From positions 1-52,465 of the forward strand of contig JAVHQG010000140.1 of the NCBI GenBank assembly GCA_036171035.1: DNA of 52,465 nt. The letters run 5' to 3'. The translations under genes and the position numbers were made by a program. Below, piece by piece: positions 360-33,346 of the stretch (positions are counted from its first letter, which is position 1; the number at the start of each line of letters is the position of its first letter). The stretch comes from Bacteroidales bacterium (lineage in GTDB: Bacteria > Bacteroidota > Bacteroidia > Bacteroidales > GWF2-35-48). Below the pieces are notes generated by a model. That model ran no database searches and was not told where the DNA came from. It saw nothing but the letters and a program-made list of their open reading frames with translations.

Positions 360-1505
360 TTGTATTTATTTGAAAATTCATATAGGTTTGTAAAAAATTA
401 TATTTTAGTGAAAGATGAGGATGTAAAAAAAGTACAGGAACTTGCACTCAAAAAGTTATTGGAAACGAATGTGGCGCAGGAAAACCAAATTGCAGCGTTA
501 CAGCATGAAGTTGATAGTCTGAAGATGCGGTTAGGAACGGGTTCTGTGCATAGTGAAATAGACGTTTTGCAGTTACTTGAGCAGAATAAAATTTTAATGC
601 AGAAAGTAGCTTTGTTGGAGTTAGATATTCAGCGAATGAAGCAAGATGTTGATATTTCTGTTGTCCCAGTGGATGAAAAGCAAATTTCTGAAAAAGCTGA
701 AAGAATAGACATTCGTAAACGATTGGTTTATACTGCAGTTGATTCTTTTAGTATTTATATTTTTGCTTATATTTTTTCATTTTTACTATATAATTTTGTA
801 ACCTTATATGCTGGTCAGCAGTTTGGACTTCACGGCAATATAAGATATTGGGGCATTGAATGGCCAAGAACGTTTGATGCTGCATTTTGGGATAGTGAAA
901 ATATTGTTAAGATATTTTTTGCCGGATCACTGGTATGCTTGATTGTTGCTTCTTTTCTGTATGTTTTATTGAAGTTATTTAAAAAATTTTATTATAAATA
1001 TCAGCTTTTTTTTGCATGGGTAATGCTTCTTTGTTTGAATCAGTTTTTTGGAAATTATATTTCCGGAGTTATTACAGGAAAAGGTTTTGCGTACGTTACT
1101 ATGGCTTTGGGTTTAGGGTTTGGTAACGATATTTTTATTGTCCTTTTTATGATTCTTGTAATGTATATTTTGGGAGCTGTTATTACAAAACCATTTTTAT
1201 ACGCATCAAGTGGATTTAGTTTAGCTGAAAAACAAAAGCGATTTCTTTTATATCAAGTGCTATATCCGAGTTTAGCAGGTAATGTTTTGATTTTATTTGT
1301 AAAAATGCCGGAGGTTACAGCATATGAATTTTTTAGTTTGATCATGATGTACATTATGATTGTTCCAATGTTTTATTCATCATCATTAATATTTGTCCGG
1401 AATAGCGTGATTTCTTTTCATAAAAATTACCGATTGAATAGCTATAGTAAAGAGCTGATTATTGCTTCAATTGTATTTCTTTTTGCTTTGAGGATATTGA
1501 TGTAA
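360..1505 (+). CDS. Membrane protein of unknown function: N-terminal coiled-coil-like region followed by a polytopic membrane domain
   Basis: Long ORF. The first ~110 aa are heptad-rich and charged (LKKLLETNVAQENQIAALQHEVDSLKMRL...LELDIQRMKQD), followed by about seven hydrophobic helices. I recognise no family. The track start is TTG at 360; GTG at 408 or a later start is possible. Confidence 0.55.
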   Translation: MYLFENSYRFVKNYILVKDEDVKKVQELALKKLLETNVAQENQIAALQHEVDSLKMRLGTGSVHSEIDVLQLLEQNKILMQKVALLELDIQRMKQDVDISVVPVDEKQISEKAERIDIRKRLVYTAVDSFSIYIFAYIFSFLLYNFVTLYAGQQFGLHGNIRYWGIEWPRTFDAAFWDSENIVKIFFAGSLVCLIVASFLYVLLKLFKKFYYKYQLFFAWVMLLCLNQFFGNYISGVITGKGFAYVTMALGLGFGNDIFIVLFMILVMYILGAVITKPFLYASSGFSLAEKQKRFLLYQVLYPSLAGNVLILFVKMPEVTAYEFFSLIMMYIMIVPMFYSSSLIFVRNSVISFHKNYRLNSYSKELIIASIVFLFALRILM

Positions 1506-1536
1506 TGGGTCTGATGTTTCATTAAAATTATGTTGT

Positions 1537-2469
1537 ATGAGAGGGGCTGTAATTGATCTAGGGACAAATACTTTTAATCTTTTAATTGTAGATATTTTAT
1601 CTGATGGAACATTTCAAGTAATTATCAGCACAAAAAGGGCTGTAAAATTAGGGTTGGGAGGTATGAATGCCAATTTCATTATGCCTGAAGCTTTTTTGCG
1701 GGGAGAAAAGGCTATTGCAAGTTTATTCAGCACATTAAAGAAATATAAACCAGATGTGATTTTTGCTTTTGCAACATCTGCTATTCGAAGTGCTACCAAT
1801 GGCACTGACTTTACAAGCATAATTGAGCAAACGTATGGATTTAAAATTGATGTTATTTCGGGCGATAAAGAGGCAGAATATATCTACAAAGGTGTCAAAA
1901 ATTCAGGAGTTTTAACGGATGAAAAAGTGTTGATTCTTGATATTGGAGGTGGAAGTAATGAATTTATTATTGCTGATAAAAATGAAATTTTTTGGAAAAG
2001 AAGTTTTAATATAGGTATTGCTCGTTTGATAGATAAATTCAAGCCGCATGATCCAATTCTATTAGAAGAAATTAGAAATATTGAAAAATACTTTGATGAA
2101 CAATTGGTCTCTTTGTTTGAAGCAGTGCAACAGTTCCCATTGACTACTTTGATTGGTTCGTCGGGTTCTTTTGAATCATTTTCAAAAATGATTGCATTTA
2201 AGAGCAAGTGTAAGGATAAAATTGTTAGTCCGATTTCTTTGGAAAATTACTTTACACTTCACAAAACGCTTATAGAATCAACAATTGAAAGTAGAAAAAG
2301 GATGAAAGGACTTGTGTGGATGCGTGTAGAAATGATTGTACTTGCCAGTATTTTTGTTAATTATATTATTAAGAAAATGAATATTTCAAAAATCATAAAA
2401 TCGGATTTTTCGTTGAAAGAGGGAGTGATTGAAGAAATATTTCAACAGCATTTGAATACAAATAATTGA
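1537..2469 (+). CDS. Ppx/GppA-family phosphatase (short two-domain form)
   Basis: ATG start. ASKHA-fold motifs are present: AVIDLGTNTFNLLIV near the N-terminus and ILDIGGGSNEFII mid-protein. The 310-aa length fits the catalytic N-terminal half of exopolyphosphatase/GppA. Confidence 0.85.
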   Translation: MRGAVIDLGTNTFNLLIVDILSDGTFQVIISTKRAVKLGLGGMNANFIMPEAFLRGEKAIASLFSTLKKYKPDVIFAFATSAIRSATNGTDFTSIIEQTYGFKIDVISGDKEAEYIYKGVKNSGVLTDEKVLILDIGGGSNEFIIADKNEIFWKRSFNIGIARLIDKFKPHDPILLEEIRNIEKYFDEQLVSLFEAVQQFPLTTLIGSSGSFESFSKMIAFKSKCKDKIVSPISLENYFTLHKTLIESTIESRKRMKGLVWMRVEMIVLASIFVNYIIKKMNISKIIKSDFSLKEGVIEEIFQQHLNTNN

Positions 2470-2532: not shown

Positions 2533-3282
2533 TTATTTTTTTCTAATCAGATCAAGAATTCCATTTATAAACGTAAGTGGGTGCATTGGATTTCCAGGTA
2601 CATAAAGATCGATAGAATATTTCTCCAAAAAGCTTCTGTTTAGTGCAGGGCTGCTAGAAAAAATTCCTCCACTGATTGCATCAACACCGGCTAAAACGAT
2701 TATTTTAGGATGTGGTGTGGCATCGTAACAGGTTTGCACTGGTATTGCCATATTTTCGGTTATCGGTCCCGTAATCACAATTCCATCTGCATGACGTGGC
2801 GATGCAACAAATTCAACACCAAATCGGCTCATGTCGAAATTTACATTATTGGTTGCACCTAGTTCCATCTCACAACTGCCATCGCCACCTGCTGAAATCT
2901 GACGTAATTTTAATGAACCACAAAACATACTATGAATTTCTTTTCGAATCAAATCAGCATTTAGTGTAATCGGGTTATCTGTGCCTTCAGAAATTATTAA
3001 ATCATTCCGATTGTTTGCAGCAATTTTATAATCTTTTGTGAAATTAATTTTTGTTGGAAAACATCTAGCACAAGCTCCGCAAAATGTGCATTTACCTAAA
3101 TCAATCCGCACGGGATTTAATAAAATTGCATCTGTTGGGCAAGTATCAATTAATTTAGATTCATCAACTTTTTTGTTGCTGATTACAGGTCGTCCTCGAA
3201 AAATTCCGGGTGCTTCAACCTTTGTAACATCAGGAATGAACTGCTTTCCCTGATGATATAATATTTTTATAGTATTTAACAT
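2533..3282 (-). CDS. NuoB/HycG/HyfI-like small subunit fused to an N-terminal ferredoxin-like segment; proximal-cluster cysteines mostly missing
   Basis: FVASPRHADGIVITGPIT and VPGNPMHP align to the NuoB/HycG core. The N-terminus carries CPTDAI...CTFCGACARCFP. It is the last gene of the tightly packed operon. Confidence 0.85.
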   Translation of the reverse strand: MLNTIKILYHQGKQFIPDVTKVEAPGIFRGRPVISNKKVDESKLIDTCPTDAILLNPVRIDLGKCTFCGACARCFPTKINFTKDYKIAANNRNDLIISEGTDNPITLNADLIRKEIHSMFCGSLKLRQISAGGDGSCEMELGATNNVNFDMSRFGVEFVASPRHADGIVITGPITENMAIPVQTCYDATPHPKIIVLAGVDAISGGIFSSSPALNRSFLEKYSIDLYVPGNPMHPLTFINGILDLIRKK

Positions 3283-12806: not shown

Positions 12807-14897
12807 TTGTGTAATATAAGAAGCATATTAATCAGACTGCTACTGAATTTGTTTGTTATAGTAATAGTTTTATTAGGCAATCACGCATTTGCGCAGGATA
12901 CTGCGAATCCATGTGACTTGAAGATTAATAAAAAAGCCGAAAAGTTATATGAAGAAGCCCTTAAAACTTTAAAATTTGATAAAGTTGAAGGCTATGCTTT
13001 ATTAATGGATGCAGTTGATAAGGATAAAAATTTTGTTGATGCGTGGTACACACTTGCCGACATTAATATGAAAAAGGCCGAGAATATTAAAAAAGGTGCT
13101 GATAACAATAGCATACACGACATGCTGAATCTGTTTACAAAAGCGGAGCAGAATTATCTTAAAATAATAGAAATTTGTCCTGAATTTGATCATTATGGTG
13201 TGTATTATATTCTCGGCGATTACTATTATAAAAATGAAAATAACTGTGGCAAAGCAAAAGATTTTTTTGCAGAATTTGTAAAAAATAATGACGAATCTCA
13301 ACCTAATTTTAAGCGCGCACAGAAACTTCTTAAAAGCTGTACCGATCTAGAACATATTATGGATAACCCTGTACCATTTGACCCAAAGCCTGTGGATGGA
13401 CTTTGCTCAACTGACGACGAATTTTTACCAATAATCTCACCTGATGGCTCACTTGCTTTTTATACACATCGCTATGCACGACTTAATACACTGATGAATT
13501 CTTCGAGTTATGTGGAGGAATTTACCGTAAGCGAGCGGGTTGATGATGACAAAAATAATGGATCAGAAAAATATGTAAAGGGGACACCCATGCCGACACC
13601 TTTTAATGCAGGAAAAAATCAGGGTGGTGTGGCAATTTCTATTGATAATAACCATATTTTTATCACTATTTGTGAAATGTCTGAATGGAAGAAAAAGCCT
13701 TATAACAATTGTGATATTTTTCAGTCAGATTTTGTAAAAGGGAAATGGACTCCTTTGCGGAATCTTGGATCGAATGTAAATACACCAGGCTCATGGGAAA
13801 GTCAGCCAACCCTCTCGTCTGACGGTAAAACTCTTTATTTTGCTACAATCAGGAAAGGTAATATTGGCTTTTCAGATGATAATCAAACTTCTGATATTTG
13901 GAAAAGTGAGCAGCAGCTTGATGGCTCATGGGGTAAAGCAGAAAATCTTGGTCCGGTAATCAATACCGCCGGCGATGAAAAATCACCATTTATACATACT
14001 GACAGCCAAACTTTATATTATTCTTCTAACGGGTTGATGGGGCTTGGTGGATATGACATTTTCTTTTCAAAAATGAATCAGGATAAAACGTGGGCTGAAC
14101 CTAAAAATATCGGATTACCTATTAATGGCGAAGGCGACGATGTGGGATTTATTGTAAGCACTGATGGTAAAAGAGCATATTTCTCATCTAATAGACTTAA
14201 AGGGCTGGGTGGCTATGATATTTTTGCGTTCGATTTATATGCTGAAGCGCGTCCTAAAAAAGTTGTGATTGTGAAAGGTGATTTGAAAGATGAGAAAGGC
14301 GAGGAACTTCAGAATGCAAAAGTTGAGCTGAAAAATACAAAAACAAATAAAATACAGGAAGCCGTTGTTGATAGAATTTCGGGAAAATATGCAATTGCTG
14401 TAACCCTTGATGATTCAAAGAAAGATGAGTTTTTGATGGTTGTTAAAAAAGATGGATATGCTTTTACTTCAGAATATATTAAACCATACGAGGATGAGAA
14501 AAAGTTTGAAAAAACTGTAACGGTAGATTTTGAAGTAAAGGAAGTAAAGGTTGGTGAATCTGTGAAACTAAATAATATTATGTTTGCCAGTAATTCTGCT
14601 AGTTTTGATGAGTCGAGTCGTGTTGTGCTGAATAATTTTGCTGAATTTTTGGAAGATAATCCTAAAATAAAAATTGCTATACATGGTCATACAGATAATG
14701 TTGGGAATGCATCGGGAAACATGAAGCTATCTGACGATAGAGCAAAATCTGTGTACGATTATTTACGTATTTCCGGTATTGATGAAATTCGGATGACTTA
14801 TAAGGGATTTGGTCAGACAAAACCTGTTGAGAGCAATGATACACCTGATGGACGTGCATTGAATAGACGAACAGAATTCATGATTACCGGAAAATAA
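12807..14897 (+). CDS. OmpA-family outer-membrane/peptidoglycan-associated protein with TPR, TolB-like PD40 repeats and a C-terminal OmpA domain
   Basis: Signal peptide ending in HAFAQ. PD40-like repeats are present (SPDGSLAFYT, LSSDGKTLYFAT, TDSQTLYYSSN, STDGKRAYFSSNR). The OmpA_C motifs are HGHTDNVGNASGNMKLSDDRAKSVYDYL...NRRTEF. The track start is TTG, so the start is uncertain. Confidence 0.85.
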   Translation: MCNIRSILIRLLLNLFVIVIVLLGNHAFAQDTANPCDLKINKKAEKLYEEALKTLKFDKVEGYALLMDAVDKDKNFVDAWYTLADINMKKAENIKKGADNNSIHDMLNLFTKAEQNYLKIIEICPEFDHYGVYYILGDYYYKNENNCGKAKDFFAEFVKNNDESQPNFKRAQKLLKSCTDLEHIMDNPVPFDPKPVDGLCSTDDEFLPIISPDGSLAFYTHRYARLNTLMNSSSYVEEFTVSERVDDDKNNGSEKYVKGTPMPTPFNAGKNQGGVAISIDNNHIFITICEMSEWKKKPYNNCDIFQSDFVKGKWTPLRNLGSNVNTPGSWESQPTLSSDGKTLYFATIRKGNIGFSDDNQTSDIWKSEQQLDGSWGKAENLGPVINTAGDEKSPFIHTDSQTLYYSSNGLMGLGGYDIFFSKMNQDKTWAEPKNIGLPINGEGDDVGFIVSTDGKRAYFSSNRLKGLGGYDIFAFDLYAEARPKKVVIVKGDLKDEKGEELQNAKVELKNTKTNKIQEAVVDRISGKYAIAVTLDDSKKDEFLMVVKKDGYAFTSEYIKPYEDEKKFEKTVTVDFEVKEVKVGESVKLNNIMFASNSASFDESSRVVLNNFAEFLEDNPKIKIAIHGHTDNVGNASGNMKLSDDRAKSVYDYLRISGIDEIRMTYKGFGQTKPVESNDTPDGRALNRRTEFMITGK

Positions 14898-15405: not shown

Positions 15406-16827
15406 CTATTCCTTGATGATTTTTTTGCTGATTGTTGTGTTTTTTAATTGAAAACGAATGAAATATATTCCTTTTTGAAAACGGCTAACGTCTATTGATT
15501 CTATATTCGGATTATTTTTTATCTGCATCGTTTTTCCATTCATATTGGTAATGTCAATATTTGTAACATTTAATTCTTTTGTTTTAAAAAATATCAGATT
15601 TTTTACCGGATTTGGATAGATAATGATGGATTCGTCGGGTGTTGCAACTTTTGAAATATCATAATTTGTTTGGAGGAAATTACTATAAACAAATTTTTCG
15701 ACATTTTGCATTTCTTGTAAATTGCTGTTCCATTTTCTGTAAATTTTTTCAGTCATTATACTATCTGCATTGTATGTATAGTCGTAATTATCTTGATCTG
15801 AAAGATTCCAATTTCCTTGATTCCAAAATTCAGATCGGTTTTCAATAAGATTTTCGTAATCATTTACTGTTTTTGTGTTTTTTGAAAAATTATACCAAAT
15901 GGATCCGGAATATTTTTCTGTAAGTGTTTTGAAAATTCTATAGTCACTTATTGTGTAGGTTAGTTTTTCTTTATGTTTCCATAAATAGTTTTCAACAGTA
16001 TCCGTAACAACTGTGTAATCATCGCCATTGTAAGAATAATTGTATTGTTGCACATTGATCCATGAATCGCTATAAGGGAGTTGCAGGGTTGCGCTTTGTG
16101 TTTTCAAGCTCGATGGGTATGGAATATACAGCATCCTTTTTTCGGGTAACCATGTTTCGGAACTGTCCTGCCAATAGTAGGCTGCATATTCAGATAGAAA
16201 AAAATCAGAATATCCAAATGTTTTTTTTGTGTAATAGTTCCAGCTTCCATTCCAATTTGAAGTGGCATCTTCAGTAATAAATCTGTCAGAGTTATATTGA
16301 AATTGATGTTTTGTGCCTGCAACCATCTGCCATTGGCCTGCAATCCATTTATAGTTTATTGTTGCACTATCATTCTCATAAATATCATAAGCATGTGTGG
16401 TCTGTGTGTTCTGAATCCAAGCGGTATGCTGCCACGCATAATTTTTATGAGATATTAATTTTTGATTTGCATATTCAAATGTATCTTTAAACAGAAAATT
16501 ATTTTGAATTGTATCAACGGTAATACTCATCATTACTGCATTTGTTGAATCAAACAGGGAAATAATACTGTATTGATAAATCCAATTGTCTGCGCCAATT
16601 GTGTCCCATTTGTAATAAGCCTGTGAACGGTGAAGCCAAAAATTTGATTTATCATGTTTCTCTGATTGCTTTTGATATAAAGGATTTAAAGATGTCTCAC
16701 CATCAGTATTTTGTGCAATTGTCGAAAGAGATAGAAATAAAAATATCAAAACTGAAGATACAGCCCCTTTTTTTAACACTTTTTTGCGAGACACAATTAT
16801 TTTGTTATTGTCACTGAAATAATACAT
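15406..16827 (-). CDS. Secreted protein of unknown function with a T9SS (Por) C-terminal sorting domain
   Basis: N-terminal signal peptide (...LSLSTIAQ). The C-terminal ~75 aa, IIYPNPVKNLIFF...MNGKTM...IDVSRFQKGIYFIRF...KKIIKE, match the Por_Secre_tail pattern. The body is rich in W/Y/N. Confidence 0.7.
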   Translation of the reverse strand: MYYFSDNNKIIVSRKKVLKKGAVSSVLIFLFLSLSTIAQNTDGETSLNPLYQKQSEKHDKSNFWLHRSQAYYKWDTIGADNWIYQYSIISLFDSTNAVMMSITVDTIQNNFLFKDTFEYANQKLISHKNYAWQHTAWIQNTQTTHAYDIYENDSATINYKWIAGQWQMVAGTKHQFQYNSDRFITEDATSNWNGSWNYYTKKTFGYSDFFLSEYAAYYWQDSSETWLPEKRMLYIPYPSSLKTQSATLQLPYSDSWINVQQYNYSYNGDDYTVVTDTVENYLWKHKEKLTYTISDYRIFKTLTEKYSGSIWYNFSKNTKTVNDYENLIENRSEFWNQGNWNLSDQDNYDYTYNADSIMTEKIYRKWNSNLQEMQNVEKFVYSNFLQTNYDISKVATPDESIIIYPNPVKNLIFFKTKELNVTNIDITNMNGKTMQIKNNPNIESIDVSRFQKGIYFIRFQLKNTTISKKIIKE

Positions 16828-30171: not shown

Positions 30172-31353
30172 TTATATTATTTGTTTGTATTTTTCTAATA
30201 ACTGTTTTGCACAAACTTTCACATTAAGGTTTTTTTCAATAAATTTTCTGTTTTCAATAATAAGTTCAGCCTTTTTATTATCAGGAAGCATAAGAAATTT
30301 TTCAATATTTTCCGTCAATTGTGTGCTGTTTCTTTCATCAGACAAAAATTCACAATTTTGTTTTGAAAGAACAAATGGAATATCGCAATGTGTTGTGCTG
30401 AATATGGGCATTCCGCTGGCAGCCATTTCAATGATTCCAACAGGAGCTCCACCTTCTGTATCGCCGTTTGTTGCAGTTACACTAGGTGAAATAAAAATAT
30501 GTGATTGGTAGGCTTCCTGAATCATTGCCTTGTGTGAAATAAATCCTAAAAGGTGGACTTTATCCTGAAGATTACATTGATTGATGATGTCTAATATTCT
30601 TTTTTTTTCTTCTAAGCTTTTCTTAAAAATATCAAATTTATTTTTTCCGGCATCGCCGATAATTTTAATTGAAAAATTTTGATGTTTTTTTTGAAATAAT
30701 CCAAGTGATTCCAGTGCATATGGGATTCCTTTCTTTTCGCGAAATGTTCCTGCAATTAGAAAATTTAAGTGTTCGTTTGCTGAAAAAATGCGAGGTATAA
30801 ATTTTATTTTTTCAAGATCTACACCGAGTCTCTGTATCTGTATTTTTTCTTTCGGACAACCCAGTTTCTCAATACATGAAGCCATATAAGGACCCTCGCA
30901 AAGGCAAAGATTTATATTTTTGAACATTTCTTTATATCGATTTCTCCAAATAGCTTTTTGTGGTAACATATTTACATCAACACCATAAAATGTTACAATA
31001 TGTTTGATATTGTGCTTTAGTGCCAGTTTGTGATTTAGCCATCCATAATGGCCAAAATGGGAGTGGAGAATATCTGGTTTTTCTTTTGTTAATACTTGAT
31101 CTAAAAGATTTAATTCTACTTTAATACCTGTTTTTCTAAACACTCTTCTAGTAAAACTATTGACCATGGATTCTTCATTTAGCGAATAAATTTTTGATGC
31201 AGGGAACTGGTCAATATTCATTGTTCGCTCGCAAACAATTATGTTTTCGCATGAATCTACTGGGATGTTATGTACCTGCCCAAAGAGCCATGTCATGGTC
31301 TGTGGCAGCCAATATTCAACACTATGTATAACTTTTATTTTTTTCACAATCAA
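30172..31353 (-). CDS. Glycosyltransferase, GT4-like (GT-B fold)
   Basis: The C-terminal half has SPSVTATNGDTEGGAPVGIIEMAASGMPIFST, matching the E(x7)E-type GT1/GT4 donor-binding region. Confidence 0.8.
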   Translation of the reverse strand: MIVKKIKVIHSVEYWLPQTMTWLFGQVHNIPVDSCENIIVCERTMNIDQFPASKIYSLNEESMVNSFTRRVFRKTGIKVELNLLDQVLTKEKPDILHSHFGHYGWLNHKLALKHNIKHIVTFYGVDVNMLPQKAIWRNRYKEMFKNINLCLCEGPYMASCIEKLGCPKEKIQIQRLGVDLEKIKFIPRIFSANEHLNFLIAGTFREKKGIPYALESLGLFQKKHQNFSIKIIGDAGKNKFDIFKKSLEEKKRILDIINQCNLQDKVHLLGFISHKAMIQEAYQSHIFISPSVTATNGDTEGGAPVGIIEMAASGMPIFSTTHCDIPFVLSKQNCEFLSDERNSTQLTENIEKFLMLPDNKKAELIIENRKFIEKNLNVKVCAKQLLEKYKQII

Positions 31354-31413
31354 TGCTAAATTTTTTGTTTATGGGCATTCGTAATTAATAAAAAAAGCCC
31401 CAAATGGAGCTTA

Positions 31414-31457
31414 TGTAGCGTGAGACAGGGTCGAACTGTCGACCTAATGAATATGAA
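31414..31457 (-). repeat. Displaced copy of the tRNA-Met 3' half (anticodon loop to acceptor 3' strand); att-like direct repeat
   Basis: It matches 33271-33314 at 40 of 44 positions in the same orientation. The T-stem GACAG/CTGTC and the acceptor strand TCACGCTA are kept. There is no D-arm or 5' acceptor sequence beyond it, so it is not a whole tRNA. Confidence 0.75.
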
Positions 31458-31752
31458 ACTTAATTTTAAAAACACCATATACTGATTATCAGAAATTTGA
31501 ATCATTGAATCGATGCTTTTTCGTTGATTATTTCGTCCAAAAGTTGATCCATTTCATTGATCCATTTCTATCATAAACTTCACAAAAACAGTTTAAAATA
31601 GCTAACGATTATTGCGCCATTTTGTCAACACAAAGATAGTTGTTTTTGCCATACAAAATAAAGTAACAAAAAATAAAAAAATAATTTTTGATTAATATTG
31701 TAATTATGCTTATGAAACATTATTTTTGTCAAGCATAATTAATTAAACAACT

Positions 31753-33111
31753 ATGAAATTCATAAACAGAAAAATAGAATTAGAGCTTTTCACTAAAGTT
31801 CTAAACCAAAATAAATCAACCTTTATTATTGTTTATGGAAGACGTAGAATAGGTAAATCTACGTTGATAAGGAAGGCTCTTAATCCTACAGATATTTATT
31901 ATATGGCGCAGTTGTCTGATGAATCACTTCAACGAGAATTACTGGCAAAAACCATTGCACAAAACATTAATGGATTTGATTCAGTTATTTATCCTAATTG
32001 GGATTCACTCTTTGAAAGCCTGTCAGAGCGTGTTACAAAAAAGACAACTTTATGTCTTGATGAATTTCCATATATGGTTAAAGCATCACCGGGATTACTA
32101 TCGGCAATACAGAAATGGCTCGATCTTCATAAGAATGGAAAATGCAACCTAATTATTTGCGGATCATCACAGCAGATGATGCAAGGGTTTACTTTTGATT
32201 CAACGAATCCACTTTATGGCAGAGCTTCTAAAACACTTAAAATAGATCCTCTTTTACCCGGCTATTTGTTACACGCACTCAAAACAGATCCGATTCATGC
32301 TGTGGAAGAATATTCAATCTGGGGTGGTGTTCCAAGATACTGGGAATTAAGGAACAATTCTGAAGATTTACCTAATGCAATTTCTGACATAATTTTAGAT
32401 AAATATGGAGTTTTGCATCAGGAGCCAATACAACTTTTTTTGGATGATATGCGCGAATCCGTACAGGCGTTTTCTATTATGTCAGTCATTGGTTCGGGTG
32501 CAAACAGATTATCAGAAATTTCCGCAAGACTTGGAAAACCATCTACACAATTATCAAGACCACTTGATGTACTTATTCAATTAGGTTATTTAATTCGTGA
32601 AATCCCATTTGGTGAAAATCCTAAAAACAGTAAACGAAGTCTTTATAAGATAAATGATCCATTTCTTGCATTTTATTTTAAACTGGTTGTTCCAAATATG
32701 AGTGCGCTTGAACAAGGTTTTGTTGCAAGAGTTATAAAGCAAACCCAAGAGTTGTATGTAAATCATATTTCATCGCAATGGGAAAATTTATGTAGAATGT
32801 CAGTACCAAGAATGCAGATTATGGGACATGATTTTAATGTTGCTAATCGTTGGTGGAATAATAAATGTGAGTTCGATCTGGTAGCTGAATCGGTAGATGG
32901 GAAACACATTCTTGTTGGTGAATGCAAATGGAGTGATATCGCCAAACCAATGGAAATTATTAATCATCTAAAAAATAAGATAAAGGAAAGTAATCTCGTG
33001 AATGGAAGATTTTTGATTATGGCTCTATTTGTGAAAAACTTTAATTTTAAGGAGAGTAACGAAGAATGTCTAATATTTACACCAAAAGAAATTATGAAGC
33101 ATCTTGTTTAA
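31753..33111 (+). CDS. AAA+ ATPase (archaeal-ATPase/ATPase_2-like) with a DUF234-like C-terminal domain
   Basis: Walker A VYGRRRIGKSTLI and Walker B LCLDEFPYM. There is a winged-helix-like middle region. The C-terminal segment reads EFDLVAESVDGKHILVGECKWS. Confidence 0.8.
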   Translation: MKFINRKIELELFTKVLNQNKSTFIIVYGRRRIGKSTLIRKALNPTDIYYMAQLSDESLQRELLAKTIAQNINGFDSVIYPNWDSLFESLSERVTKKTTLCLDEFPYMVKASPGLLSAIQKWLDLHKNGKCNLIICGSSQQMMQGFTFDSTNPLYGRASKTLKIDPLLPGYLLHALKTDPIHAVEEYSIWGGVPRYWELRNNSEDLPNAISDIILDKYGVLHQEPIQLFLDDMRESVQAFSIMSVIGSGANRLSEISARLGKPSTQLSRPLDVLIQLGYLIREIPFGENPKNSKRSLYKINDPFLAFYFKLVVPNMSALEQGFVARVIKQTQELYVNHISSQWENLCRMSVPRMQIMGHDFNVANRWWNNKCEFDLVAESVDGKHILVGECKWSDIAKPMEIINHLKNKIKESNLVNGRFLIMALFVKNFNFKESNEECLIFTPKEIMKHLV

Positions 33112-33272
33112 TCAAATCTTTAAATCAAATATTAAACAATGGGTTTTTATTTGTTTACACAGCTTACAATATTAAAAAAAAGGCTTAAAAAAGTAGTTGT
33201 GGTGCAAATCGTATGCAAGTAATAAAAAAAGCCTCTCAAAGAAAAACCCTGAAAGGCTTATCGTTGTCAATG

Positions 33273-33346
33273 TAGCGTGAGACAGGATTGAACTGTCGAC
33301 CTCATGATTATGAATCATGCGCTCTAACCAGCTGAGCTACCACGCC
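33273..33346 (-). tRNA. tRNA-Met (anticodon CAU), elongator type; a lysidine-modified tRNA-Ile2 cannot be excluded
   Basis: The reverse complement folds by hand into a cloverleaf: GGCGTGG TA GCTC AGCTGGTTA GAGC G CATGA TTCATAA TCATG AGGTC GACAG TTCAATC CTGTC TCACGCT A. The acceptor stem has terminal G:U pairs. CCA is not encoded. Confidence 0.9.

Follow-up and report, generated by a model that had tools for sequence, protein, structure and literature searches.

The mobilizable elements NBU1 and NBU2 of Bacteroides reportedly integrate at tRNA 3' ends, at tRNA-Leu and tRNA-Ser, respectively. Each is said to encode a tyrosine integrase with an N-terminal arm-binding domain, from a gene near one end, and to combine mobilisation genes with 13-14 bp cores at the extreme 3' end of the tRNA. 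Here we describe an islet beside a tRNA-Met gene from the same phylum, in a 52,465-nt stretch of DNA from a Bacteroidales bacterium (contig JAVHQG010000140.1 of assembly GCA_036171035.1). We refer to this whole stretch as the window and to the genome under study as G000. The islet resembles NBU1 and NBU2 in having a tRNA 3' end as its target, but it is bounded by a 44-nt repeat and carries no integrase or mobilisation gene; its only gene encodes an ATPase. We conclude that this 1.86-kb interval is probably, though by no means certainly, the decayed remnant of a site-specific insertion into tRNA-Met that has retained its ATPase gene, the equivalent of a cis-mobilizable element (CIME).

CIMEs are att-flanked elements that have lost their integration genes, as in the ICESt1-related remnants of Streptococcus thermophilus (PMC5704250, citing Pavlovic et al. 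2004). Like a CIME, the window islet has attL/attR-like repeats at the 3' end of its target gene, with cores identical at 40 of 44 positions, and a preserved cargo, and it lacks integration and transfer genes. Unlike the described CIMEs, it belongs to the Bacteroidota and to another integrase family, and at 1.9 kb and one gene it is far smaller. Moreover, arm-type repeats are found only on its tRNA-proximal side; one arm thus lacks the repeat motif of the other, and mobilisation in cis may therefore no longer be possible. CIMEs also serve as landing pads for accretion, and one relative, G002, shows such a tandem structure at tRNA-Met.

A second parallel is provided by the islands collected in Islander whose attP is centred on the anticodon (class A; PMC4383910 and Williams 2002, cited there). 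A start at the anticodon loop is the commonest attP sublocation in Islander, and the anticodon-centred class makes up about half of the islands (PMC4383910). The window islet shares with these islands a regenerated tRNA gene, a fragment of it in the same orientation on the same replicon, a fragment boundary at a recognised crossover sublocation (the anticodon loop, as in class A) and an identity block that runs from the anticodon loop to the 3' end. It differs in lacking an integrase within the interval, and hence in failing the integrase filter, in being shorter than is typical, and in showing no compositional signal.

A partial tRNA-Met copy in direct orientation

The two tRNA-related sequences and the hairpins that follow them are located in the window as follows.
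33272-33346, minus strand: intact tRNA-Met(CAU) gene (ARAGORN; full-length match to Rfam RF00005, 66 bits)
31413-31457, minus strand: partial tRNA-Met copy, from the anticodon loop to the discriminator plus 2-3 nt (repeat search, 41/45); the attR core under the proposed model
33229-33259, minus strand: terminator hairpin and T run 3' of the full tRNA (terminator scan), the first half of a module at 33196-33262
31388-31412, minus strand: terminator hairpin (31395-31412) and T run after the partial copy (terminator scan)

The original prediction proposed that the tRNA gene is accompanied by a displaced copy of its 3' half, and suggested tRNA calling at both loci. The full gene was the one tRNA that ARAGORN called in the window, as tRNA-Met(CAT); it may be an elongator Met or a lysidine-modified Ile2 tRNA. 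Neither ARAGORN nor Rfam called a tRNA at the partial copy. A repeat search of the window recovered the predicted direct repeat: 31413-31457 and 33270-33314 are co-oriented and identical at 41 of 45 positions, the equivalent of the 40/44 over 31414-31457 reported earlier. The copy spans the anticodon loop, the 3' strand of the anticodon stem, the variable region, the T arm, the 3' acceptor strand and the discriminator, and identity ends exactly at the first base of the anticodon loop. Two of the four differences fall in the T loop (TTCAATC versus TTCGACC); both are valid loops on a common GACAG/CTGTC stem, which bears out the earlier claim of a T arm that differs in the copy and yet remains self-complementary. 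The other two differences are at positions 38 and 43, in the anticodon loop and stem. Each copy is then followed by its own minus-strand, terminator-like hairpin and T run (33259-33229 and 31412-31395), the second of which had also been foreseen. The divergence of the repeat at 4 of 44 positions suggests that the insertion is not recent.

A dispersed repeat, which the original prediction had named beforehand as evidence that would count against it, was sought with a 31-nt degenerate pattern covering both variants. The pattern matched the window twice, against an expectation of zero (100 shuffles), and matched nowhere else in the genome (2.88 Mb, 384 contigs). Because the whole assembly holds only these two matches, the 44-nt repeat is not a dispersed repeat. 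The order glyA, glycosyltransferase, partial copy, ATPase gene was recovered at 99.9% identity in three independent Logan assemblies (SRR25490549/45/23), all of which stop inside the tRNA, at window base 33324. As three independent assemblies share the arrangement, it is not an assembly artefact, and the islet appears to be fixed in the three metagenome samples that contain it. A match of the Atu_C8 small RNA to the partial copy (27 bits, against a gathering score of 50) was rejected as a chance match to the T arm and terminator.

The islet gene encodes an ATPase_2-DUF234 protein

The interval of about 1.86 kb between the copies contains one gene, the only open reading frame (ORF) of at least 100 aa, and this gene is preceded by a putative regulatory region of its own.
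31753-33111, plus strand: sole gene of the islet, convergent with the tRNA, encoding a 452-aa protein with an ATPase_2 (AAA+) domain, a winged helix-turn-helix (wHTH) and a PD-(D/E)XK-like DUF234 domain (Pfam, PADLOC)
31702-31740, plus strand: putative promoter/operator of the ATPase gene, an inverted repeat AATTATGCTT...AAGCATAATT around the Bacteroidota -7 box TATTTTTG (31721-31728)

The protein matches PF01637 with 60.6 bits (cut-off 33.2) and PF03008 with 62.6 bits (cut-off 22.5), with a weak HTH_IclR-type helix-turn-helix match in Pfam between the two. DUF234 has been counted among the PD-(D/E)XK families (PMC3424549). In PADLOC, residues 2-394 match PDC-S27 (PDLC04984) almost end to end (147.9 bits, E = 1e-43), and no match was found in NCBIfam or among PDB sequences. 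The Walker A and Walker B motifs and the D..E.K motif are kept across all 13 sequences formed by this ATPase and its 12 orthologs (GRRR.GKstL, c.DEFPY and e.D....S.D....lvgE.KW). Because these catalytic motifs are conserved in the orthologs, we consider the gene, which is single-copy in the genome, to be intact and under selection. The window ATPase thus resembles PDC-S27, a single-gene phage-defence candidate of PADLOC, in its hidden Markov model match, its Walker A/B and D..E.K motifs and its location in a variable islet; the conserved palindromic promoter/operator of the window gene has no counterpart for PDC-S27 in the limited literature that we searched. We predict from these features that the ATPase is a defence candidate of the PDC-S27 family.

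The -7 box within the inverted repeat is of the TAnnTTTG type. An inverted repeat of the form ATTATGY...RCATAAT stands 12-50 nt before the start codon in at least 11 of the 12 orthologs, which come from other families, and its arms co-vary (ATTATGC/GCATAAT, ATTATGT/ACATAAT, ATTATC/GATAAT). A variant form of this structure occurs on an IMG/VR contig. Besides the window, the repeat is present at the corresponding positions of loci L033-L042, L044 and L108. The inverted repeat is probably an autoregulatory operator for the ATPase's own wHTH. With its own promoter/operator, the gene would be expressible anywhere.

Of 200 sampled genomes of the order, 12 encode an ortholog (43-50% identity), and the gene context differs in every case. 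No tRNA or tRNA fragment lies within 1.5 kb of any of these 12 orthologs or of the one on a viral-collection contig. The contig of one ortholog (44% identity) encodes a type IV secretion system (T4SS) coupling protein, IS200/IS605 genes and a serine resolvase, and is conjugative-element-like. From this patchy spread and the conjugative-element-like contig, and hence on comparative grounds, we conclude that the ATPase gene is accessory and borne by mobile elements.

No integrase gene in the islet and a truncated one elsewhere in the genome

The original prediction held that only an ATPase gene, and no integrase, lies between the copies, and our ORF, Pfam and six-frame checks agree. The interval contains no integrase gene, no second ORF of at least 100 aa, and no recombinase, relaxase or T4SS gene. 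Six-frame reading and tblastx against the islands of the genus revealed no integrase pseudogene in either non-coding flank of the ATPase gene. Genome-wide, PF00589 matched just two Xer-sized recombinases (301 and 312 aa), and integrases of the genus, used as queries, recovered nothing better in this genome than these two Xer-like proteins. The Arm-DNA-bind_5 model gave one extra match, a 155-aa truncated integrase that consists of the arm domain only.
C339 (L140), about 13340-14062: tRNA-Asp, then a terminator, tandem TGTTTGACAAT x2 and the truncated integrase

As this truncated integrase follows a tRNA-Asp gene, we conclude that integrases at tRNA genes decay in this organism. A degenerate 3' fragment of tRNA-Asp lies on a separate 1.7-kb contig (C353, 1310-1334). 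Two small ORFs follow the truncated integrase, one of them MazF/PemK-like by eye.

Integrase-bearing islands of relatives share the boundary, orientation and length of the window repeat

We compared the locus with two genomes of the same genus, G001 and G002. Both are distant, with a RibBA protein about 83% identical to that of G000. G001 keeps the gene order lptFG, glycosyltransferase, TPR protein, glycosyltransferase, ribBA, tRNA-Met, and the genes downstream of its tRNA are unrelated to those in the window. In G002, the genes after ribBA are an unknown gene and one for a tyrosine integrase, and tRNA-Met is located elsewhere. Synteny is therefore lost exactly at the tRNA in all three genomes, as is typical of an integration hot spot. 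The ATPase found no match in G001 (in both searches that included this genome) and only a 32% paralog in G002. Because neither of these two genomes has the ATPase arrangement beside tRNA-Met, it is not a shared ancestral feature; an ancestral arrangement had been the other finding named in advance as damaging to the original prediction.

Two integrase-bearing islands in these genomes served as yardsticks. In G002, an integrase with Arm-DNA-bind_5, SAM_5 and Phage_integrase domains lies 153 nt past tRNA-Met, and about 10 kb further on there is a 43/43 copy that begins at the same anticodon-loop TTCATAA as the window repeat. In G001, a 3.2-kb islet at tRNA-Lys (higA, higB, ORF6N and integrase) is closed by a copy identical at 45 of 46 positions, which begins 4 nt ahead of the anticodon loop. 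In boundary, orientation and length, the window repeat matches the local integrase family. Among 30 Arm-DNA-bind_5 integrase loci of relatives, 15 lie 177-533 nt downstream of a co-oriented tRNA, and at least 10 of these 15 spacers contain a terminator and then element-specific repeats, either tandem (11-13-nt period) or inverted.

Different tandem repeats at either end of the islet

Each end of the islet has a tandem repeat in its non-coding DNA.
33203-33218, minus strand: tandem TTGCA-N6-TTGCA (TTGCATACGATTTGCA, running into TTGCACCA) with an 11-nt period; candidate arm-type integrase site (P' arm)
31544-31568, no strand assigned: tandem TTGATCCATTTC x2 with a 13-nt period, unique in the genome, within 240 nt of non-coding DNA

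The 110 nt after the full tRNA comprise the terminator, its T run, TTGCATACGATTTGCACCA and a T-rich tail. By local alignment, this flank is homologous (z = 16-22) to three flanks of the genus, after tRNA-Lys and tRNA-Asn of G001 and after the distal tRNA-Met fragment of G002; the match to the tRNA-proximal end of the G001 tRNA-Lys islet gave z = 22. Weaker homology (z = 10) was found to the flank after a tRNA-Arg(ACG) in the genome under study (contig C347, 8773-8837). We built a covariance model from these five flanks, with no tRNA sequence included, and searched 61 genomes; the window sequence, which matched with 80.6 bits, was itself among those used for training. Beyond the five, six matches contained TTGCA-N6/7-TTGCA: after tRNA-Met of G027, G020 and G041, after two tRNA-Asn of G032, and after a degenerate tRNA-like copy of G052. 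Each of the 11 sites is located 4-9 nt downstream of a tRNA or a fragment of one. The module comprises a terminator, a T run and TTTGCAYANAATTTGCAYA, and follows Met, Asn, Lys and Arg tRNAs or their fragments in several families (window 33196-33262; C347 8773-8837; L060, L062-L065, L073, L080, L092 and L095). The bare motif occurs 103 times in this genome, and two of these occurrences, that in the window and that after tRNA-Arg on C347, stand after a terminator hairpin directly 3' of a tRNA.

Both integrase-bearing islands have TTGCA(A/C)(A/C)(A/T) repeats in both arms, and the variant agrees within each element (TTGCAAAT at both ends in G002; TTGCACCA at both ends in G001). Since these islands and the Arm-DNA-bind_5 spacers carry repeats at this place, we infer by analogy that the TTGCA pair at 33203-33218 is an arm-type site to which an integrase would bind. 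The 3' end of the ATPase gene is 90 nt from this pair, where an integrase gene would be expected within a few hundred bases. The idea that the module is merely the native flank of tRNA-Met was rejected as a full explanation: it follows Met, Lys, Asn and Arg tRNAs, and it is also found inside the integrase-bearing G001 islet.

Two module-bearing loci have further structure of their own. On contig C93 of G032, two convergent tRNA-Asn genes 72 kb apart (L092, about 87.3 kb; L095, about 159.2 kb) both have the TTGCA module, and genes of LRR/SUKH-immunity and HEPN-nucleotidyltransferase type lie beside them. In G052 (contig C59, L093, about 15480-16056), a terminator and then about 330 nt separate a tRNA-Met, incomplete at the contig end, from a degenerate tRNA-like copy, which keeps the same 3' acceptor end and is then followed by the TTGCA module, in a miniature tandem structure.

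The other arm is of a different kind. From the partial copy to the ATPase start codon there are 295 nt, the final 50 nt or so being the promoter/operator. The hairpin and flank of the partial copy are unrelated to the module family (z of at most 5 by local alignment). Neither the 240-nt flank nor the 13-nt tandem has a relative in 400 genomes of the order, and the tandem is absent from viral contigs and has one unrelated cyanobacterial match; these searches thus yielded no parent element. The TTGATCCATTTC tandem could be a P-arm relic, unrelated in sequence to the TTGCA repeats. As the two ends carry different tandem repeats, they may come from different elements, through accretion and internal deletion.

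Chromosomal surroundings

On one side, the islet is flanked by glyA and a WcaL-like glycosyltransferase gene, and on the other by ribBA, further glycosyltransferases, a TPR protein and lptF/G.
30172-31353, minus strand: WcaL-like glycosyltransferase gene beside the partial copy; rare, with homologs of 37-38% identity in 2 of 200 genomes of the order

The closest homologs of this glycosyltransferase (71-57% identity) occur in unrelated contexts. In G194, about 5.5 kb separate a homolog from the ATPase ortholog of this genome. Because the glycosyltransferase is rare and is near an ATPase ortholog in G194, the variable region may extend beyond the tRNA fragment.

Proposed origin of the islet

We propose that an Arm-DNA-bind_5-family tyrosine integrase inserted the islet into the anticodon loop of tRNA-Met. 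Integration would have rebuilt the tRNA from its native 5' half and the 3' half, terminator and arm sites of the element (33196-33314), so that the tRNA gene at 33272-33346 would be attL, and would have left the former 3' half, along with its terminator, displaced at the distal junction (31388-31457). In this element family the start of the integrase gene is as a rule 180-530 nt beyond the tRNA; here a later deletion would have removed this gene and most of the element, leaving behind a self-sufficient ATPase cargo with its own promoter/operator. The remnant would now be immobile on its own, with both att sites kept and the integration genes gone. The assignment of the partial copy as the native end follows from this mechanism.

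Several observations weigh against this proposal. The search for an empty site was negative: comparison with the DNA of 30 relatives revealed no synteny left of the tRNA, and since same-genus synteny stops at the tRNA, the empty site cannot be read there. The glycosyltransferase gave no anchor for such a site, being rare in the order and absent from JGI metagenome contigs. Exact-pattern scans for the lineage-specific tRNA 3' arm in two large contig collections, of genomes and of metagenomes, returned nothing, and no excised form of the islet was seen. A tRNA composed of the resident 5' half and the partial copy would carry a C27xU43 mismatch, which leaves positions 27-43 unpaired. No TTGCA site adjoins the partial copy, which has only the unrelated 13-nt tandem beside it. 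The module also occurs after the distal fragment in G002, outside the newest island, and in G052, and elsewhere after several tRNAs that have neither an integrase nor a fragment within 4-13 kb; genes next to these integrase-less modules are of accessory or defence type (restriction-modification, HEPN-nucleotidyltransferase, SUKH immunity and LRR), as is usual for the module. Such cases could be explained by accretion onto an older remnant, but the module may also be a host feature or an older scar, which would weaken the argument for polarity. Finally, the ATPase gene has a GC content of 0.337, a third-position GC content (GC3) of 0.245 and a codon-usage distance of 0.68. Because GC, GC3 and codon usage all match those of its neighbours in the window, the compositional test gives no signal of foreign origin.

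The broader claims of the original prediction therefore stand in part. For an integrase-type insertion into the tRNA speak the boundary and orientation of the repeat, the 43/43 repeat of G002 and the TTGCA repeats, and against it the lack of a detected empty site. Horizontal acquisition of the interval agrees with the patchy distribution of the ATPase and with the conjugative-element-like contig of one ortholog, and has no signal in its composition; the deviation in GC or codon usage for which the original prediction had suggested looking is absent. The claim that the copy is the original chromosomal 3' end is consistent with the element-like TTGCA flank at the full tRNA and is at odds with the mismatch in the rejoined tRNA.

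Single-gene islets without an integrase, and other explanations

Two further islets lacking an integrase bear on the alternatives. The first was found by scanning the genome under study for 3' fragments of all its tRNAs, and the second by searching the protein of the first across the order.
G000, contig C187 (L139): tRNA-Pro(GGG) islet, with the tRNA at 2336-2410 (minus strand), the fragment at 417-460 and the gene at 541-2121 (minus strand)
G088, contig C5 (L156), another family: tRNA-Met islet, with the tRNA at 3195-3269 (minus strand) and the repeat copy about 1.96 kb downstream

At tRNA-Pro, a 43/44 copy that starts from the anticodon loop lies 1.88 kb from the tRNA. The tRNA has a terminator, beyond which stands a tandem GTAGCAAA x2. 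The islet has a single gene, for a 526-aa protein with SLFN_AlbA_2, HATPase_c_4 and Fic-like_C domains, and no integrase. In G088, the repeat is a perfect 98/98 direct repeat, made up of 47 nt of the 3' part of tRNA-Met and 51 nt of terminator. The one gene of this islet, which also lacks an integrase, encodes a 509-aa Schlafen-like protein homologous to that of the tRNA-Pro islet, and its stop codon falls inside the repeat. No empty site for the G088 islet was found in its genus, where only the tRNA-proximal flank is conserved. The three islets of about 1.9-2.0 kb may reflect either repeated decay to one selected gene or cassettes inserted in trans.

In the latter case, the window islet would be a single-gene cassette that was never autonomous, consisting of a gene and an attP-like tRNA half and inserted by an integrase encoded elsewhere. 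It would then resemble integron cassettes, with one gene, one recombination site, no recombinase of its own, a fixed site and a tyrosine recombinase elsewhere, and would differ from them in having a half-tRNA site rather than an attC hairpin and its own promoter, with no array or platform integrase seen. Two more islets of similar size, each with one defence-like gene and no integrase, fit this explanation, as does an ATPase whose own promoter/operator makes it expressible anywhere; the perfect G088 repeat, hard to square with slow decay, favours it for the G088 islet. For the window, however, the lack of a tRNA or fragment near the 12 other ATPase orthologs or the viral-collection one argues against a cassette. 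Furthermore, neither a circular form nor a copy at a second site was observed for any such cassette, and no matching integrase is present in this assembly. The three cases could also be convergent decay to one selected gene, a single deletion may be recent, and the empty site of G088 was not found either. We regard a cassette origin of the window islet as unlikely. It is also rather unlikely, in our estimate, that the order more generally harbours integrase-less single-gene defence cassettes of about 2 kb, each a self-promoted gene with a tRNA 3'-half recombination site, inserted into tRNA anticodon loops in trans by Arm-DNA-bind_5 integrases encoded elsewhere, as a tRNA-based analogue of integron cassettes, with these three islets as its members.

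We judge improbable an explanation in which the polarity is reversed or hybrid. The full tRNA, its terminator and the TTGCA module would then be the older part, and the partial copy, its flank and the ATPase gene the relic of another element, two tandem islets having been joined by an internal deletion once accretion had taken place. This would accommodate the module found after the distal fragments in G002 and G052, the relatedness of the hairpin at the syntenic tRNA-Met of G001 to the module (z = 7-13) and the difference in tandem repeats between the ends of the window islet; such structures are documented to arise by tandem accretion and subsequent deletion (PMC5704250). Conversely, the module lies inside the repeats of the integrase-bearing G001 tRNA-Lys islet, and, as it follows four tRNA species, it is not simply the ancestral flank of tRNA-Met. 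A reversed or hybrid polarity would in any event still need an insertion by an integrase, and is a variant of the decayed-insertion origin that we prefer, not another mechanism.

A non-integrative origin, with the fragment as a truncated tandem duplicate of tRNA-Met or a product of illegitimate recombination and an ATPase gene that came to lie between the copies fortuitously, is very improbable: tandem tRNA-Met arrays do exist in the order (three copies in G028, two in G088) and integrase, compositional signal and empty site are all missing, but truncation would need to have struck, by accident, the first base of the anticodon loop, where the G002 tRNA-Met and C187 tRNA-Pro repeats also begin (that of G001 tRNA-Lys starts 4 nt earlier), the fragment has its own terminator, and TTGCA repeats like those in both arms of integrase-bearing islands adjoin the full tRNA.

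Significance

Taken alone, a decayed insertion at tRNA-Met is an ordinary genome scar, and its value lies mainly in annotation: the ATPase gene can be flagged as accessory and probably defence-related cargo. Islets such as this one are missed by island finders that require an integrase, such as Islander. The comparison also offers an anatomy for the tRNA-targeting elements of a poorly studied order of Bacteroidota, in which the tRNA is followed by a terminator, tandem repeats of 11-13 nt and the integrase. The recurring single-gene islets are the most worthwhile part of these findings: if they are cassettes mobilised in trans, they would provide a simple route for single defence genes to move between tRNA hot spots.

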